Shown here: in pieces, positions 7,873-63,440 of the stretch
Layout of the letters: every line of letters begins with the position of its first letter
Numbering within the stretch: position 1 is the stretch's first letter
Source of the DNA: Bacteroides fragilis
GTDB taxonomy: Bacteria; Pseudomonadota; Alphaproteobacteria; Rs-D84
NCBI GenBank assembly: GCA_963630775.1
Contig: CAVGNU010000003.1
Location: 19,190 to 83,189, forward strand
Direction: 5' to 3'
Length of the DNA: 64,000 nt
The notes under the pieces: model-generated
What the model was told of the DNA's origin: nothing
Database searches by the model: none
The model's input: the letters and a program-made list of their open reading frames with translations, nothing else
Position numbers and translations under genes: made by a program

Positions 7873-8397
7873 TCACTTTGTATAGTAACAATTCTTGTTA
7901 TAAAACTGATACGTATGGCCTGAACTGTCTGTCATTTTTGTATTTGCAGGGATAAAGCAATCCGTTATGGACGATTTGTTGTAACCTGATGTTGTGCCAT
8001 TCACACCATCCAATGCCGGACACCGCGTACATCCGGTGGATACATTACCGTAATATCCAACCGCACACAGGCATGACGTTTTATCATTACTTGTTACCAT
8101 ACCATGTAAATCATTACACGACACGACATAGCACCCTGTTGGTTCACCCACCGCATGATAACTGCTGTCACAACATGGCGACATTTTATATGCAGCGCCA
8201 GACCCCGCCACAGAACATGACGTCGTTCCACCATTGGTAAAATTGCCACAATATATCTGGCCATTAATGGTGACGTAATACCCATAACAACGTGTACATA
8301 AACTGCCCGTGGTGCATGACACACCGGATGCACCCCCGCAAATTCCGGCGATTACAACACCGACAACCATGACACATGCTGTACGATTCCATTTCAT
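7873..8397 (-). CDS. Secreted cysteine-rich protein (family member 1)
   Basis: 174 aa with an N-terminal hydrophobic signal-like segment (MKWNRTACVMVVGVVIAG). About one residue in ten is Cys. The C-terminal module CAVGYYGNVSTGCTRCPALDGVNGTTSGYNKSSITDCFIPANTKMTDSSGHTYQFYNKNCYYTK is alignable with the protein encoded at 39497..39787. Confidence 0.7.
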   Translation of the reverse strand: MKWNRTACVMVVGVVIAGICGGASGVSCTTGSLCTRCYGYYVTINGQIYCGNFTNGGTTSCSVAGSGAAYKMSPCCDSSYHAVGEPTGCYVVSCNDLHGMVTSNDKTSCLCAVGYYGNVSTGCTRCPALDGVNGTTSGYNKSSITDCFIPANTKMTDSSGHTYQFYNKNCYYTK

Positions 8398-8687
8398 TTT
8401 CCCACTCCTTTATTGGGTTAAAAAAAAATACCGCCAAAGAATTGGCGGTCGGGGATTTGAAAAATCATAAGCAAAAATGACCCCGTGACTTTTGAACAAA
8501 ATATGTCCTTATCATCACAGACCCCCGACCGGAATACACACAGTCGGGTTAACAAAACACGGCGCGTAAAACACACCGATGTTTGTTCGGATTTACAACG
8601 CAAGAATGCGCCGTTTTGCTTACAGGATTTTCAAGTCCCAGAGCCAACATCCCTGTTGATTCAGGCAACAGTGTAGAAAATTAATAA
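8398..8687 (-). promoter_or_regulatory. Long structured 5' leader with terminator/antiterminator-like alternative pairings (leader L1)
   Basis: Read on the minus strand: CCCGAC (8548-8543), GGTCGGGGG (8530-8522), CCCCGACC (8454-8447), then CCGCC-AATTCTTT-GGCGG (8448-8431) followed by TA plus T9 (8428-8420), then AAGGAG and the ATG. Possible sigma70 promoter TTGTTT-17 nt-TACACT overlaps the tatA terminator tail. Confidence 0.5.
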
Positions 8688-39467: not shown

Positions 39468-39500
39468 GAACAGCGCGCCAATGGCGCGCCGATTCTTTAT
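39468..39500. terminator. Hairpin terminator between convergent J-domain gene and the Cys-rich operon
   Basis: GCGCGCC-AAT-GGCGCGC followed by CGATTCTTTATTTT. Confidence 0.6.
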
Positions 39501-39787
39501 TTTGAATAACAACATTTACTCTGTATCACTTGTACACCTGAACCGGTGGTGTCTTGGTAATCAAATTCCGTTCCTGCGGCAAAACAACACGATGTTATGT
39601 CGCCGGTATTTTTATCTGGCGTTGTTGGATACACACCCCCAGACGACGGACACTGGTAACAATTTGAACCACTCAGATAGTATCCTGCCTCGCACGAATA
39701 AGATGTTGTTGTCGTGCATGCCGCATGCGCAACATTCACAATAAATATAACAAATAATGCAGTAATAATTTTTTTCATATTTCTCAC
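39497..39787 (-). CDS. Secreted cysteine-rich protein (family member 3)
   Basis: 96 aa with signal peptide MRNMKKIITALFVIFIVNVAHA. The mature part, CEAGYYLSGSNCYQCPSSGGVYPTTPDKNTGDITSCCFAAGTEFDYQDTTGSGVQVIQSKCCYSK, aligns with the C-terminal module of the 7873..8397 protein. Confidence 0.65.
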   Translation of the reverse strand: MRNMKKIITALFVIFIVNVAHAACTTTTSYSCEAGYYLSGSNCYQCPSSGGVYPTTPDKNTGDITSCCFAAGTEFDYQDTTGSGVQVIQSKCCYSK

Positions 39788-39793
39788 TCTCGA

Positions 39794-40195
39794 TTACAAT
39801 TGATTACACGCCTCACAAGTACCTACCACTTTCCCGGATGCGACACTGCAACATGTACTACACGTGTTCGCATCACACAACCTGGCACAGTACCAATGTT
39901 CCTCGTCTGTGGTGCTGCACGAACCATACATTGCTGTTACATATCTGTGATTGGTGGTATCGTGGGTTGTGCCGGACGTACGTGTGCACGTACCGGAGTT
40001 ATTCGTCCACCCTGATGGACAACTGGCCTCTACCACAGAATAACACGCCCCCAACGAACAGTTTTGTGCGCAAAGAGACAATGATGCATAATACGGATCG
40101 AGCAGCGAAAAATCAGGATTTAATTTTGACGCATCTACCGCAAATGCGCACGGCATCATGACCAGTATCAGCGGAATTGCAAACAGTTTCTTCAT
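39794..40195 (-). CDS. Secreted cysteine-rich protein (family member 2)
   Basis: I prefer the Met at 40195 (MKKLFAIPLILVMMPCAFA signal peptide), preceded by AAGGGGG. 133 aa, about 10% Cys, with CxxC/CC pairs (CSTCC, CEAC). It lies 6 nt upstream of the next Cys-rich gene. Confidence 0.65.
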   Translation of the reverse strand: MKKLFAIPLILVMMPCAFAVDASKLNPDFSLLDPYYASLSLCAQNCSLGACYSVVEASCPSGWTNNSGTCTRTSGTTHDTTNHRYVTAMYGSCSTTDEEHWYCARLCDANTCSTCCSVASGKVVGTCEACNQL

Positions 40196-40330
40196 TTCAC
40201 ACCCCCTTATGTGTTTTGCAAACAAAAAACCACCGAAATAATTCAGGTGGTTGGAGGTTCGAAACAATTATCAAGAATTGTGGGCCTATTCAATATATTC
40301 AGCCACCCTCCAACCGCATGGTTGGGGGTG
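40196..40330 (-). promoter_or_regulatory. Conserved leader module L2 (alternative-pairing element plus hairpin/U-tract before the RBS)
   Basis: Minus strand: CCCCCAACC (40328-40320) atgc GGTTGGAGG (40315-40307), 49 nt, CCTCCAACC (40257-40249) overlapping AACCACC-loop-GGTGGTT (40252-40228), then TTTTTT, AAGGGGG and ATG. Near-identical to 60552-60690. Confidence 0.55.
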
Positions 40331-40338
40331 ACGGCATT

Positions 40339-40378
40339 GAAAAAACGAAACATCGCAAGGATATAAATCCATGCGATG
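40339..40378 (-). terminator. Intrinsic-terminator-like hairpin about 10 nt upstream of leader module L2
   Basis: Minus strand reads CATCGCATGGA-TTTATA-TCCTTGCGATG-TTTCGTTTTTTC. Confidence 0.5.
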
Positions 40379-40529
40379 CCGAAATCTCTACCGTCTGCAT
40401 TTTATGACGCGTAATGCGTTCATCTTGATAAAGGGTTTCGACACCCCGCCAATGGAACACCCATCGGCAATGGAATAATAAAATAAAAAAACACTATACA
40501 CAAGAGAAAAAAATATTTTGACCAAATTT

Positions 40530-40579
40530 GAATAAATTTAGAATGGCGGTAGATATGCGTGAGGCGGGTTGCGTAGTGT
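40530..40579. repeat. Half copy (left arm only) of a palindromic repeat, type B
   Basis: GAATAAATTTAGAATGGCGGTAGATATGCGTGAGGCGGGTTGCGTAGTGT matches 40705-40753 apart from one extra T. Confidence 0.8.
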
Positions 40580-40597: not shown

Positions 40598-40706
40598 CGA
40601 ATAAATTATAATGGTGCAGATGACACGTGGGGCGAAGGCGAAGTGTACAACTAGTTACATGAGCCGCCGCCCCGCGCGCCAGATGTGCCATTATAACTTT
40701 ATTCGA
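40598..40706. repeat. Imperfect palindromic repeat element, copy A
   Basis: Termini are CGAATAAATTATAATGG...CCATTATAACTTTATTCG. Arms GGTGCAGATGACACGTGGGGCGAAGGCG and CCGCCGCCCCGCGCGCCAGATGTGCC flank the apex AAGTGTACAACTAGTTACATGAG. Confidence 0.75.
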
Positions 40707-40815
40707 ATAAATTAGAATGGCGGTAGATATGCGTGAGGCGGGTTGCGTAGTGTACAATCAGTTACATGAGCAACCCGCGTCGCACATAGATACCCCATTA
40801 TAATTTATTTAGGTA
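40704..40815. repeat. Imperfect palindromic repeat element, copy B (right end overlaps the trxB stop and last codons)
   Basis: Arms GAATGGCGGTAGATATGCGTGAGGCGGGTTGC and GCAACCCGCGTCGCACATAGATACCCCATTAT flank the apex GTAGTGTACAATCAGTTACATGAG. The terminal CCATTATAATTTATTT contains the trxB TAA (40800-40798). Confidence 0.75.
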
Positions 40816-59888: not shown

Positions 59889-60551
59889 TTAAAATGTATG
59901 TCTCAATCCAAAATCAATGCTATATGCACCCTGCAGGTCAAAATCATCATCTGCATTCAAACCGATAAAGTTCAAACTCACATTCCAACCAAGTCCTTCA
60001 ACGGCGGTTTCGCCATTCAGGCCAAACTTTAATACCCCCGCGGCACCATTATCAGACATTGTTTCTTTGCCATATCCGTAAACCTTTACAGATTCATTTA
60101 CCCATGCATGACCCAAGCCGAATGAAAAAACAAAATCTAAACGCCGCCCTTCATTACCAGACAAACGAATATAATTATCGTATGTAAAATACAATGTTGT
60201 TAAATCTATTTTGCCATCCATGTTGACTCTATAAAAATTCCCATAGGAATCTTCCAAAATAAAATTTGGACCAGCGGTTAAATGACCTACCTGGGGCATA
60301 TACGATAATGTTGCACTGACACCACCATTATAAACACTGCTGTGTTCACCAAAACGCAGTCCGAATACCCCAGACCACGTTATGGTGACACCATCAGATT
60401 TTAATATATCGTCATCAATGGAATCTTCCACATCATCTGAAAATACTGGCCCAGCAAAACCAACTTTCATCCCCAGAAACAATTTTGTTTCTGCCATTGC
60501 TGGCATGGCCAAAATAGACAGCAACCCCGTTGTTAAAAATAATTTTCTCAT
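59889..60551 (-). CDS. Small outer-membrane beta-barrel protein
   Basis: I prefer the Met at 60551 (MRKLFLTTGLLSILAMPAMA signal peptide). Beta-strand periodicity and a C-terminal ..GLRHTF. Confidence 0.7.
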   Translation of the reverse strand: MRKLFLTTGLLSILAMPAMAETKLFLGMKVGFAGPVFSDDVEDSIDDDILKSDGVTITWSGVFGLRFGEHSSVYNGGVSATLSYMPQVGHLTAGPNFILEDSYGNFYRVNMDGKIDLTTLYFTYDNYIRLSGNEGRRLDFVFSFGLGHAWVNESVKVYGYGKETMSDNGAAGVLKFGLNGETAVEGLGWNVSLNFIGLNADDDFDLQGAYSIDFGLRHTF

Positions 60552-60690
60552 TTCACACCTCTGTTTATGTTCTGTTAAACAAAAACCACAATGGAATACC
60601 AAAGTGGTTGGAGGTTGAATACTATTATTTACGGAATAGTGTCGCTTATTCTAATATATCGCGACCCTCCAACCATCAAGGATTGGAGGT
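60552..60690 (-). promoter_or_regulatory. Conserved leader module L3 (same module as 40196-40330)
   Basis: Minus strand: CCTCCAATCC (60689-60680) ttgat GGTTGGAGG (60674-60666), 51 nt, CCTCCAACC (60614-60606) overlapping CCAC-loop-GTGG (60607-60586), then TTTTT, AGAGG and ATG. A TATAAT on the minus strand at 60765-60760 could be the promoter. Confidence 0.55.
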
Positions 60691-60805
60691 ATTTTTTGTC
60701 CCCACGGACACGTAAATAGAGGGTATTCACACCCTGCACCATTTCTGTGGTACACGTTGATTATATTCTATGGCACATTCAAATTCCAGATAAAATTTAC
60801 GCTGA

Positions 60806-60925
60806 TTTCAAAAACAAAAACCGCCCAGCGGGCGGTCTAAATATAAAGTAAACTGTTCATTGTGCCGACTGCGCGGGTTTAATGCGGCGTAAAAATAAAC
60901 CGCCCAGCGGGCGGTCTAAATTAAA
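60806..60925 (-). terminator. Two tandem copies of the same terminator hairpin (79-nt period) downstream of the acyl-CoA ligase gene
   Basis: CCGCCCAGCGGGCGG occurs at 60821-60835 and 60900-60914 inside a roughly 30-nt direct repeat (AAACCGCCCAGCGGGCGGTCTAAAT.TAAAG). On the minus strand each copy reads CCGCCC-GCT-GGGCGG followed by a T-rich run. Confidence 0.65.
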
Positions 60926-60928
60926 GAG

Positions 60929-61026
60929 AACGGTGCAGATACGCCGATGTCGGCAAGCGTAGTGTATATGTAATACATGAGCGCGCCGACATCAAGCAGA
61001 TGTGCTGTTATATTTAATTTATTCCT
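60929..61026. repeat. Imperfect palindromic repeat element, copy C (end overlaps the stop of the acyl-CoA ligase gene)
   Basis: Arms ACGGTGCAGATACGCCGATGTCGGCAAGC and CGCGCCGACATCAAGCAGATGTGCTGTT flank the apex GTAGTGTATATGTAATACATGAG. The right terminus TATATTTAATTTATTC is the reverse complement of the GAATAAATTA-type end seen at 40598 and 40704. Confidence 0.7.
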
Positions 61027-62599
61027 TTCTGATGGGGTATTTGCCATCTATCAAATTCTGCCGCACCACATGATGTTTCACTTTCTGTGTGCTGGTCATC
61101 GGCAGGTCATCTGTGGTCATGGCAAAGTGCGTCACCCATTTATATGACGCAACCTTTTTGTTCGCCTGGGCAATCGCGGCAGACAATTTTTCCAACGTCA
61201 TATCCGCGTCAACACTGAATACACCGTATGTCACGGTTTTATCCTTGACCCGATGTTCAAACACGGCAACGTTTTTAACCCCAGGGATTTTCATAAACAG
61301 GCCTTCCAGTTCATCTGGATAAACGTTTTTACCACTGTCCAAAACAATCACTTGTTTTTTACGGCCGGCAAAGTGCAATTCGCCATTTTTATCCATGGAT
61401 ACCATATCGCCTGTGTTAAAGAAACCGCGTTCATCAAACACCTGTTCATTAACCGTTGGGTTGTTCAGATACCCACCGAACACCTGGTGGCCGCGCAACC
61501 ACAGAACGCCAACACCGTCTTCGTTTTTATCGCGAATTTCGCATTCATTGTGTGATGTTGGCGCACCAAACGCAAACGGGAAACGTTTCTTGGTTGGTTT
61601 TGAAATACAGATTGGCCCAACGGTTTCTGTCAAACCATATCCCTGAATAAAAGTCAACCCTAAACGCTCATAGAACTTTTCCACCTCGGGCTTGGTCGCA
61701 GCACCACCAGCAACCAACAAACGCGCGCGACCACCAAATATTGCCAGAACTGGTTCTTGAACCTTGCGCACCAAAAATTCCAACCCCAATTTTTCCAATG
61801 TTTTTCCATATTTCAGGACAAACGATGCCATCCACCACATGTGCTTTTCTTTCAATGTGTCGATAATGCGGTTTCTGATAACCTCGAATAATCTGGGAAC
61901 TGCTGGAATAATTTGCGGCTGGTACTTTTTGAAATCCGTCATGATTTCTTTTGGGTTGACTGTTGATTGCAACAGCATACCCGACCCAAAATGCAGTGTA
62001 GCCAAGATTTCAACCGCAAAACCAAAGATATGATACATCGGCAAGAAACCATACATAATGTCGCCTGCTTTTATCCATTCCGCCATATCTTCCAACGAAT
62101 TTGCGCATTCAATCAGATTAAAGTGTGTCAGTGGCACAACCTTGGGCGTGCCGGTTGAACCCGATGTGAATGACAGCGTTGCAATTTCGGTCGATTCCAC
62201 TGGTGCCGCGGTCAAATCCGGATTTGGTTTGCCGTCTTTTTTCATAATGTCATAAAACTTGAATTTGTCTGTTTTATAGAAAAACGACTTTTCCGCGCAC
62301 ACCATTTTGCATTTTGTGATTTCTGCCATGTTGTCATATTCAAATGGTGTCAGGTTTGTATCCAACAACAACACGCGCCCACCTAAATACCAAATTGCAA
62401 ACATAGTAATTGGGAACTGTGGCACATTGTGCGACAGTACACCCACAACATCGCCACGGACAACCCCCGCCGCATGCAGTGATGCCGCGCGCGCTTTGAC
62501 CAAATCCAAGAACGCCGAAAACGTTACCTCTTCGCGAACCAGAATCAAATTGTCTGGCCATGTTACGACTGCCTTTTCCAGCAGTTGATACATATTCAT
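61019..62599 (-). CDS. AMP-dependent acyl-CoA synthetase/ligase (long-chain fatty acid-CoA ligase-like)
   Basis: I prefer the Met at 62599 (MNMYQLLEKAV). AMP-binding motif SFTSGSTGTPKVV, plus GYGLTE and GDMVSMDKNGELHFAGRKK. Confidence 0.85.
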   Translation of the reverse strand: MNMYQLLEKAVVTWPDNLILVREEVTFSAFLDLVKARAASLHAAGVVRGDVVGVLSHNVPQFPITMFAIWYLGGRVLLLDTNLTPFEYDNMAEITKCKMVCAEKSFFYKTDKFKFYDIMKKDGKPNPDLTAAPVESTEIATLSFTSGSTGTPKVVPLTHFNLIECANSLEDMAEWIKAGDIMYGFLPMYHIFGFAVEILATLHFGSGMLLQSTVNPKEIMTDFKKYQPQIIPAVPRLFEVIRNRIIDTLKEKHMWWMASFVLKYGKTLEKLGLEFLVRKVQEPVLAIFGGRARLLVAGGAATKPEVEKFYERLGLTFIQGYGLTETVGPICISKPTKKRFPFAFGAPTSHNECEIRDKNEDGVGVLWLRGHQVFGGYLNNPTVNEQVFDERGFFNTGDMVSMDKNGELHFAGRKKQVIVLDSGKNVYPDELEGLFMKIPGVKNVAVFEHRVKDKTVTYGVFSVDADMTLEKLSAAIAQANKKVASYKWVTHFAMTTDDLPMTSTQKVKHHVVRQNLIDGKYPIRKE

Positions 62600-62669
62600 C
62601 TTATAAAATTCCTTGTGTTTTTTATATTGGACTGCCAGTATTATATAACCAAAGGAAAAGATTGCAAAT

Positions 62670-63440
62670 ATGAAAATTCTGACATTAAATATAAATTCAA
62701 TCCGTGCCCATGCCGAGAGTTTTATTGATATTCTGCGGTCTGGTGAATACGACACGATTATGGTTCAAGAATTAAAGGTTGAAACCGCAGGATTTCCGCA
62801 TAACCTGTTTGACGAATATGGTTATAATATCAAGGTTTTTGGCCAAAAGAGTTGGAACGGCGTTGCGACCTTTTCCAAGTATTCTATCGAAGATGTGACG
62901 ATGGGACTGCCTACATATTCCGACGTGAACGCGCGATTCTTGGAATGCGTTGTTGATGGACGTGTGCGCCTGATAAACGTGTATATGCCAAATGGCGACA
63001 CAATCGATTCACCGAAATTCCCGTACAAGATGGAATGGCTGGTGGCATTTACAAAATACATTGAACAATATTTGCATTCCCCAGAACCCGTTATCGTCGG
63101 TGGCGATTTTAACATCGCATTGACTGATCGCGACGTATGGAAACCGGCAAACTATACCAACATCGCCATTGCCGCGCCGGCCGCGCGCGCCATAATGCAA
63201 TCGTGGATTGATGCCGGCTGGGCGGACGTATGGCGCACTATGCACCCAGACGAAATTGCATACACTTGGTTTGGATATCGCGGTGGTGATACGATTGGCA
63301 AAAACATGGGATTGCGTTTGGATTATTTCTTGGCAAATCCCACAGCAATGCAGATGATTAAAAATTGTGAGATTGATACCGCGCCACGTATGGCGACAAA
63401 GCCAACCGATCATTGCGGATTGATGTTGACCATTAAATAA
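62670..63440 (+). CDS. xthA: Exodeoxyribonuclease III
   Basis: MKILTLNINSIRAH, VQELK and a C-terminal DHCGL. 256 aa. Confidence 0.92.
   Translation: MKILTLNINSIRAHAESFIDILRSGEYDTIMVQELKVETAGFPHNLFDEYGYNIKVFGQKSWNGVATFSKYSIEDVTMGLPTYSDVNARFLECVVDGRVRLINVYMPNGDTIDSPKFPYKMEWLVAFTKYIEQYLHSPEPVIVGGDFNIALTDRDVWKPANYTNIAIAAPAARAIMQSWIDAGWADVWRTMHPDEIAYTWFGYRGGDTIGKNMGLRLDYFLANPTAMQMIKNCEIDTAPRMATKPTDHCGLMLTIK

Follow-up and report, generated by a model that had tools for sequence, protein, structure and literature searches.

What is the structured stretch of DNA in front of the Cys-rich gene at 7873-8397 (minus strand), and how might it act on that gene? The window, that is, the whole stretch of DNA analysed here, covers 64,000 nt of contig CAVGNU010000003.1 (positions 19,190 to 83,189 of the forward strand, assembly GCA_963630775.1) from a bacterium of the alphaproteobacterial order Rs-D84, and all coordinates below are those of the window unless another locus is named. 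A sequence-only reading had placed at 8398-8560 a leader of four mutually exclusive segments ending in a terminator, with matching modules at 40196 and 60552; the three are called leaders A, B and C here. It appears probable (roughly 0.6) that they belong to a family of cis-acting leader RNAs which switch folds to control transcription elongation into the downstream gene. The two predicted folds, one with a terminator and one with an antiterminator, are mutually exclusive and each is backed by covariation. The best reading of the model is that these leaders would terminate transcription by default and be opened by an effector.

All of the elements listed for leader A (s1, s2, the 67-nt spacing, s3, the terminator, the A/T9 run, AAGGAG and ATG) were found on the minus strand. 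The extent given for it needed revision: the element is real, but the leader runs from about 8420 to 8672, some 110 nt further upstream. Similarly, the stem with a U-run described near segment 1 is present, as hairpin H0, but it is located inside the leader and not upstream of the module. H0 lies between the long-range partners of two pairings, X:X' and Y:Y', that had not been seen before. The parts of leader A are as follows.

About 8420-8672, minus strand: leader A, folded as a 253-nt RNA, upstream of the Cys-rich gene
8653-8671, minus strand: P0, 5' hairpin CUGUUG/CAACAG; the transcript probably starts just upstream
8625-8639, minus strand: hairpin HY, GGGA...UCC, from the covariance-model match and the sequence
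8628-8634, minus strand: Y, UUGAAAA, the loop of HY; partner Y'
8614-8622, minus strand: X, UAAGCAAAA, pairing with X' at 8468-8476, a helix present in the unconstrained minimum free energy (MFE) fold
8560-8613, minus strand: H0, CGGCGC...GCGCCG, the stem of the earlier reading, also flagged by the terminator scan
8549-8559, minus strand: U-rich linker, the TGTTTTGTT tail after H0, from the terminator scan
8543-8548, minus strand: s1, CCCGAC, anti-antiterminator strand; partner s2
8522-8530, minus strand: s2, GGTCGGGGG (also given as GGUCGGGGG), switching strand; partner s1 or s3
8483-8520, minus strand: P2, CUGUGAU/GUCACGG, with internal loop GAUAA/AAAA and a distal hairpin at 8494-8508
8463-8482, minus strand: P3, hairpin GGUCAU/AUGAUU, whose loop is X'
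8468-8476, minus strand: X', UUUUGCUUA, the loop of P3; partner X
8457-8463, minus strand: Y', UUUUCAA, pairing with the HY loop Y to give a pseudoknot
8447-8454, minus strand: s3, CCCCGACC, antiterminator 3' strand, overlapping the terminator 5' strand
8420-8450, minus strand: intrinsic terminator ACCGCC-aauucuuu-GGCGGU (stem 8430-8449) with an A/U9 run (8420-8429), also found by the terminator scan
8405-8410, minus strand: Shine-Dalgarno sequence AAGGAG
8395-8397, minus strand: start codon ATG
7873-8397, minus strand: the gene, encoding a Cys-rich protein of 174 aa with a signal-peptide-like N-terminus and no Pfam family

In leader A a 12-nt loop separates s1 and s2, and the distance from s2 to s3 is 67 nt. 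Strain copies of this leader (L001-L004) are 99-100% identical and therefore uninformative for covariation.

Relatives were retrieved with two patterns. The first scan, over one genome per species, used the s2...s3 pattern of leaders B and C and returned at least 118 stretches, nearly all from Candidatus Enterousia or from uncultured gut, rumen, Alphaproteobacteria or Rickettsiales metagenome-assembled genomes. A covariance model (R1) built from 61 of these members gave 129 matches over the first-scan loci, of which about 120 were strong and had the orientation of the downstream gene. Of six presumed chance loci, five (L049, L054, L066, L067 and L116) were not matched at all and the sixth (L114) gave only weak matches of 21-24 bits. 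The second, independent pattern was anchored on the P2 loop and P3 and was blind to s1, s2 and s3. It returned 120 metagenome stretches, and in the first 100 of these loci R1 gave 117 matches, nearly all strong, from which a second covariance model (R2) was built. Once weak opposite-strand and chance matches were removed, around 240 of the 129 and 117 matches were regarded as genuine. Three leaders per 64 kb, together with extra matches in flanking DNA, would roughly suggest 10-40 copies per genome.

Across the entire window, searched on both strands with filters off, R2 gave exactly three matches with E < 0.01, which are leaders C, B and A, and the full model was covered in each. The order of segments is identical in all three, as had been claimed. 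Leader A was matched at 8443-8641 with the full model spanned (25.6 bits, E about 8e-4); R1, made from canonical members, barely detected it (12.2 bits) and the broader R2 was needed. On these matches, and on the folding z-scores given below, the arrangement goes far beyond chance, and leader A is a diverged yet real family member. The other two leaders and their genes are located as follows.

40222-40470, minus strand: leader B, a complete member (R2 85.0 bits, match 40245-40448)
Leader B, 5' half, minus strand: P0 40448-40468; HY/Y 40435-40447; X 40423-40430; expanded H0 40330-40419
Leader B, 3' half, minus strand: s1 40320-40328; s2 40306-40315; X' 40269-40276; Y' 40259-40265; s3 40249-40257
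40228-40252, minus strand: terminator of leader B
39794-40195 and 39497-39778, minus strand: first and second gene under the putative control of leader B
60580-60755, minus strand: leader C, a canonical member (123.6 bits in one search; R2 108.7 bits)
Leader C, 5' half, minus strand: P0 60736-60753; HY/Y 60720-60735; X 60711-60718; H0 60698-60709
Leader C, 3' half, minus strand: s1 60681-60689; s2 60665-60674; X' 60626-60633; Y' 60616-60622; s3 60606-60614
60586-60607, minus strand: terminator of leader C
59889-60551, minus strand: gene under the putative control of leader C

From 5' to 3', the order in the family is promoter, P0, HY, X, H0, linker, s1, s2, P2, P3, Y', s3, terminator, Shine-Dalgarno sequence and gene, with an RNA of roughly 200-250 nt. 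Sigma70-like promoters, with 9 or more of 12 positions matched, were found in 52 of 75 members, compared with about 9% of shuffles, and the -10 element ends 24-28 nt 5' of HY. P0 has a mean folding energy of -8.4 kcal/mol against -3.5 kcal/mol when shuffled. HY is a GGGG/CCC stem whose loop is made up of 2 nt and the 7-nt segment Y, and X is 6-11 nt long. H0, closed by GUC...GAC, is found in nearly all members and varies in length (about 14 nt in C, 54 nt in A and about 90 nt in B). The linker that follows it is A-rich in most members and U-rich in A and B. In both of these, H0 plus the U-rich run is terminator-like (8560-8578 and 8549-8559 in A, 40339-40378 in B, minus strand), and the run might act in early termination or as a pause site.

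Further downstream, the loop of P2, GAAUA-N5-AAUAA, is nearly invariant and unpaired, with an inserted hairpin in some members. It has what we take to be the form of a UAA/GAN internal loop, and P2 of leader A, with its distal hairpin, corresponds to this family P2. The loop of P3 is X', and what seems to be a conserved spacer, TTCGAA, before s3 is Y'. A hairpin containing the 3' half of s3 and followed by a U-run was found in 109 of 119 genome members and 96 of 105 metagenome members (205 of 224 together), which bears out the proposal of four segments ending in a terminator throughout the relatives. The terminator stands about 20-30 nt before the Shine-Dalgarno sequence and the start codon about 45-60 nt 3' of s3. 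Two features of an attenuator are combined here: a GC-rich hairpin with a U-run before the start codon, and a covarying antiterminator, one strand of which is also used by the terminator.

Four ordered, mutually exclusive segments with a terminator before the Shine-Dalgarno sequence are also characteristic of trp leaders and of riboswitch platforms. In a trp-type attenuator a ribosome on a short open reading frame (ORF) over segment 1 would free segment 2, and the logic of 1:2, 2:3 and 3:4 pairing is the same as that seen here. However, an ORF with a Shine-Dalgarno sequence and ATG ending near s1 or s2 was present in only two of 76 members, and the region 5' of s1 is filled by covarying hairpins of highly variable length. 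Unlike these attenuators, the leaders have no leader peptide, and this explanation is effectively refuted.

A MAFFT alignment of 61 members, made without regard to structure, was used to examine the folds themselves. Fold 1 (HY, Y:Y', H0, s1:s2 and P2) is 95.6% paired, with 16 pairs changing on both sides; none of 500 shuffles reached its score, and slid registers were not near it either. Fold 2 (HY, H0, s2:s3, P2 and P3) is 95.7% paired. Among single pairs, one in the HY stem is GC in 40, AU in 13 and GU in five sequences, P3 pair 146:164 is UA in 47 and AU in 11, and H0 has four covarying closing pairs. The strands s1, s2 and s3 were judged in the metagenome set because the first pattern had fixed them. 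At least seven classes of s2 occur among its 106 members (GGUUGGAGG, GGUCAGGAGG, GGCAGGAGG, GGUUGGAGU, GGUUUGGAG, GGUUGGGGN and GGUUGGGAU); s3 tracks s2 across the classes and s1 does so in most members, while s2:s3 amounts to 9-12 bp in 101 of the 106. The window holds an example of the same behaviour, and here the earlier suggestion of compensatory partner changes proved correct: s2 of leader A differs from that of B and C by U4->C and A7->G, and both changes are matched in s1 as well as in s3.

The long-range pairings were found with similar consistency. In 76 of 80 members Y:Y' consists of 7-8 bp, whereas upstream regions permuted among members gave a mean of 3.7 bp; over 30 distinct sequences are used for this helix. 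X:X' is the longest complement at a fixed position in 80 of 119 members (mean 7.7 bp compared with 6.05 bp in controls). The geometry of HY and Y:Y', with a 2-nt loop 1, a stem 2 of 6-7 bp and no spacer, would be that of a classical H-type pseudoknot. P3 was assigned to Fold 2 only, since X' abuts P3b and this excludes X:X'; a coexistence of P3 and X:X' as a pseudoknot, with 0-1 nt between X' and P3b, was rejected as improbable in geometry. Also rejected was the pairing preferred by ViennaRNA between the GGGG 5' strand of HY and CCUC of s3, as HY covaries locally and not with the s3 classes. RNAalifold on the MAFFT alignment gives only HY and s2:s3, the variable helices being out of register. 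The A-rich linker and the U-run after P3a are only weakly correlated (rho 0.30, p 0.01, with no correction for relatedness), so that an extra helix between them has little behind it.

Pairs of G with U are frequent, UG being found in 11 and 14 sequences in s1:s2, in 11 in P2 and in six in H0. These fix the strand and the RNA level, because they would be A-C mismatches on the other strand. Together with the three-way covariation of s1, s2 and s3, they uphold the view that base pairing in RNA, rather than a DNA-binding protein, is what has been conserved. An element acting at the DNA level (protein-binding inverted repeats, a recombination site or a miniature mobile element) would be in keeping with the multiple and at times tandem copies. 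It is very improbable, however, given the G-U pairs, the maintenance of pairing while sequence changes freely, and an orientation that is always that of the downstream gene, between promoter and terminator; no target-site duplications or terminal repeats were seen in a reading of the loci.

Leaders A, B and C each fold as s1:s2, two inner hairpins and the terminator, with z-scores of -3.3 to -4.4. Their unconstrained MFE folds (-97.1, -105.1 and -65.7 kcal/mol, respectively), calculated with no comparative input, hold Y:Y', X:X', H0, s1:s2, P2 and the terminator, which is Fold 1. The sequence-only reading had required the alternative helices to be among the low-energy structures, and this was found for one of them: s1:s2 is in the MFE fold of all three leaders, but s2:s3 lies 13-20 kcal/mol above it. 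Forcing s2:s3 instead of s1:s2 costs 13.8 kcal/mol in A, 20.1 in B and 13.2 in C, and of 70 members 69 favour Fold 1 over Fold 2, with a margin of 11.3 +/- 4.3 kcal/mol even when the terminator has yet to be transcribed. As s2:s3 is not a low-energy alternative, its reality rests on the covariation, and an effector or a kinetic route would be required to reach it.

The following mechanism is proposed. Since s3 shares its 3' half with the terminator stem, s2:s3 is to be regarded as the antiterminator and s1:s2 as the anti-antiterminator. In Fold 1, P0, HY and H0 would form in the nascent RNA and s1 would capture s2 once the latter is made. X would then clamp X' and the HY loop would clamp Y', giving the pseudoknot, and s3 would be left free for the intrinsic terminator, producing a terminated RNA of about 200-250 nt. 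In Fold 2, s2:s3 would close a three-way junction with P2 and P3, the terminator would lose its 5' half and the gene would be transcribed. Termination is the likely default because Fold 1 is the more stable and its 5' elements are transcribed first. Read-through would call for a factor that either blocks the clamp (s1, X and Y) or stabilises the three-way junction. In contrast to known attenuators, the OFF state of these leaders adds two long-range helices, one of them pseudoknotted, which target the P3 loop and a junction strand.

The genes that follow the leaders were surveyed through 107 first downstream ORFs. About 30 of these encode small XRE-type helix-turn-helix (HTH) proteins (Pfam HTH_3 or HTH_31), and at least 58 encode proteins with signal-peptide-like N-termini, none of which has a Pfam family. 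The secreted set comprises Cys-rich proteins, including those of the genes behind A and B, outer-membrane-like proteins, including that behind C, and adhesin-like proteins. Only two of the genes are ABC-type transporters, and no association with the metabolism or transport of one compound was seen among the 107. The gene behind leader A had been called a paralogue of one in the operon behind leader B, and this holds for the second gene of the operon only: the C-terminal 70 aa of the A gene product show 37% identity to it (E 4e-7), with no significant similarity to the first.

Some loci depart from the pattern of one leader and one gene. In L138 (160-560, plus strand) five bare junction modules (s2-P2-P3-s3) lie head to tail with joints of about 8 nt and without the 5' clamp. 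This chain, the only one among the loci examined, starts directly behind a TATAAT-like site, and s2 and s3 covary separately in every module, so that the three-way junction appears from its sequence to be an autonomous module. Complete units also occur in tandem, four in L134 (123-1000, plus strand) and two in L105 (754-1151, plus strand), each with a promoter-like site and a terminator and with an ORF only after the last unit.

These arrangements raise the question of whether the RNA acts in trans, as a protein sponge or a base-pairing small RNA (sRNA), in the form of the terminated RNA (about 200 nt) or of the bare junction; read-through would then be secondary, and cis control still compatible. 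The four tandem units of L134, with their own promoters and terminators, and the chain of L138 right after its promoter-like site speak for such a role. So does the nearest shape in Rfam, sRNA-Xcc1, which is an 88-nt RNA with mapped ends (PMC2996969) and occurs in five tandem copies in Xylella (PMC12189769). On the other hand, a same-orientation gene with a Shine-Dalgarno sequence follows within about 45-60 nt in some 90% of cases. So elaborate a clamp (s1/X/Y), with s3 overlapping the terminator, is understandable only in an RNA that takes a decision. X and Y are the partners of X' and Y' in the same molecule and differ from one instance to the next; they are not conserved seeds. A function mainly in trans is thus considered rather unlikely.

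A riboswitch, in which a small ligand such as a metabolite or second messenger sets the terminator decision by binding either Fold 1 (OFF) or the three-way junction (ON), deserves attention for several reasons. This is a large, conserved RNA in which a pseudoknot and multi-way junctions are combined with a P2 loop that is unpaired and nearly invariant, and its terminator/antiterminator platform is typical of riboswitches; the ligand-bound Fold 1 would in this case be a pseudoknotted four-way structure. Multiple copies per genome stand before surface and regulator genes, a distribution that is also known for the cyclic-di-GMP riboswitch classes. Nevertheless, the junction strands are short or variable, J3/1 being Y', which covaries with Y, and Fold 1 wins by 11-20 kcal/mol with no ligand at all. 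The regulated genes indicate no metabolite, five chained bare junctions without an expression platform, as in L138, are not a riboswitch arrangement, and no known riboswitch family was matched in Rfam. Overall, a riboswitch seems unlikely, although a small ligand is the main alternative for the effector.

The effector of the proposed cis-acting switch is most likely a trans-acting macromolecule, for example an RNA-binding protein that recognises the three-way junction and P2 loop or holds the 5' clamp. Such an effector is favoured because of the L138 and L134 arrangements and the scarcity of conserved junction nucleotides. There is some resemblance to decoy-RNA antitermination, as a structured module is found in many leaders together with one multi-copy chain that could titrate a factor. 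Protein-dependent antitermination with decoys is known from ANTAR regulators and EutX/Rli55, and CsrA with CsrB offers an analogy. Unlike those systems, the leaders have neither paired hexaloop hairpins nor an array of GGA loops, and the chain was seen once.

No Rfam 15 family, and no tRNA, was found in the whole window at the gathering threshold. In E-value mode, run on the three window leaders and eight related loci, sRNA-Xcc1 (RF02221) was matched below threshold by B (37.6 bits), A (27.1), L058 (37.0) and L111 (34.8), and by neither C nor the other instances of the eight loci (four of about 15 instances in all). These scores of 27-38 bits fall short of the curated gathering score of 53 bits, and membership of RF02221 fails on that score. 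The other isolated weak matches, to nqrA-II (22 bits, A only), Qrr, L20 leader and Trp leader, were treated as chance. A search of the literature on Rs-D84 or RF32 together with riboswitches or noncoding RNA found nothing.

sRNA-Xcc1 is an RNA of Xanthomonas integron cassettes and other mobile elements, and it is the best Rfam match to the core of Fold 2, aligned over consensus positions 1-87 with P1, P2 and P3 in register. In both RNAs the three-way junction is closed by GGNNGGNGG/CCNCCNNCC, after which come ACC and a U-run. The P2 loop of each includes AAUA, and a UUNGA strand precedes the 3' strand of P1. Both are often located upstream of genes for small nucleic-acid-binding proteins, those of sRNA-Xcc1 being symE or ORF6N protein genes (bioRxiv 10.1101/2025.06.18.660453; 10.1101/2020.03.17.996009), and tandem arrays are possible in each. 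sRNA-Xcc1 starts at P1 (PMC2996969), and its description contains no counterpart of the 5' clamp domain of the leaders, about 100 nt (P0, HY, X, H0 and s1) that pair with three parts of the junction. The conserved promoter of the leaders lies about 100 nt upstream of s2, only the L138 chain starting at a junction module, and the leaders occur in another host clade with no integron context. BLAST of the Rfam sRNA-Xcc1 consensus against plasmids gave no match. The shared shape and several conserved letters are suggestive and may reflect homology.

A further reading is tentative and, on balance, doubtful. The three-way junction, distantly sRNA-Xcc1-like, would be the receptor for a dedicated trans-acting factor, and the 5' triple clamp (s1, X and the pseudoknotting loop) would dismantle the junction whenever the factor is absent. 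The leaders would then form a genome-wide regulon in Rs-D84, with bare chains as decoys.

Several points weigh against the cis-acting switch proposed here. The antiterminator is less stable than Fold 1 by the 13-20 kcal/mol given above and s1:s2 is made first, so a plausible route to Fold 2 is missing. The 5' end, termination and read-through are all predictions; for leader A, no consensus promoter passed the promoter scan, and its 5' end is a predicted one. Leader A also scores just 25.6 bits with R2. Each retrieval pattern fixed some sequence, and each helix could be judged only in the set retrieved without it. The covariation counts are cells rather than independent events, many members being paralogues in related genomes. 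Finally, the tandem units of L134 and the chain of L138 fit an RNA that acts also, or mainly, in trans.

The leaders constitute a large, well-sampled and strongly covarying class of structured RNA, previously undescribed and absent from Rfam 15. As an orphan riboregulator the class has an unusual design, with two elaborate folds that are both under selection and an OFF state that would attack the ON-state fold at three places, one of them via a pseudoknot. The host order has genomes of 0.75-1.0 Mb, without respiration and the TCA (tricarboxylic acid) cycle, which are among the smallest of free-replicating gut bacteria (PMC12306168). The secreted Cys-rich, outer-membrane-like and adhesin-like proteins under putative leader control presumably serve in contacts with the host or other microbes, and the element offers a direct way to ask which signal these uncultured organisms answer, the natural variants being ready-made compensatory mutants. 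Were the reading with a dedicated trans-acting factor true, one signal would switch on much of the secreted and surface proteome, together with XRE regulators, in a symbiont genome of 0.8-1 Mb, and it would give a first mechanistic handle on the sRNA-Xcc1-type RNAs of mobile elements.

A few other observations were made around the leaders. Four full-scoring family members (L243-L246, 77-120 bits) come from IMG/VR contigs with a viral classification, whose gene surroundings are not clearly those of a phage. In L243 the gene downstream codes for a secreted protein, and the neighbours, read by eye, resemble a phospholipase-D-type nuclease and a DNA methyltransferase. Palindromic repeats of the form GTCATTGCGAG...CTCGCAATGAC, with the look of repetitive extragenic palindromic (REP) or miniature inverted-repeat transposable (MITE) elements, occur in the flanks of L019, L023, L098, L099 and L138. 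This type is not enriched in the window (five matches against 5.6 expected).

Within the window, another structured element, whose sequence is unrelated to that of the leaders, adjoins the upstream side of the leader promoters, with two copies at B (40600-40700 and 40712-40800, minus strand) and one at C (60928-61010, minus strand). Each copy is a long hairpin (85-100 nt) that conserves GCUCAUGUA...UACAC at its apex, whereas the stems diverge without loss of pairing; the z-scores are -7.4, -6.8 and -4.2, respectively, and there is no Rfam match at the gathering threshold. A 45-nt direct repeat (40535-40579 and 40709-40753, 98% identical, 174 nt apart) lies within the hairpin units upstream of B. 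Upstream of C, a terminator-like hairpin, AAACCGCCCAGCGGGCGGTCTAAAT, is present in two copies (60812-60842 and 60891-60921, 94% identical, 79 nt apart), and this pair is situated between the upstream gene at 61019-62755 and leader C.

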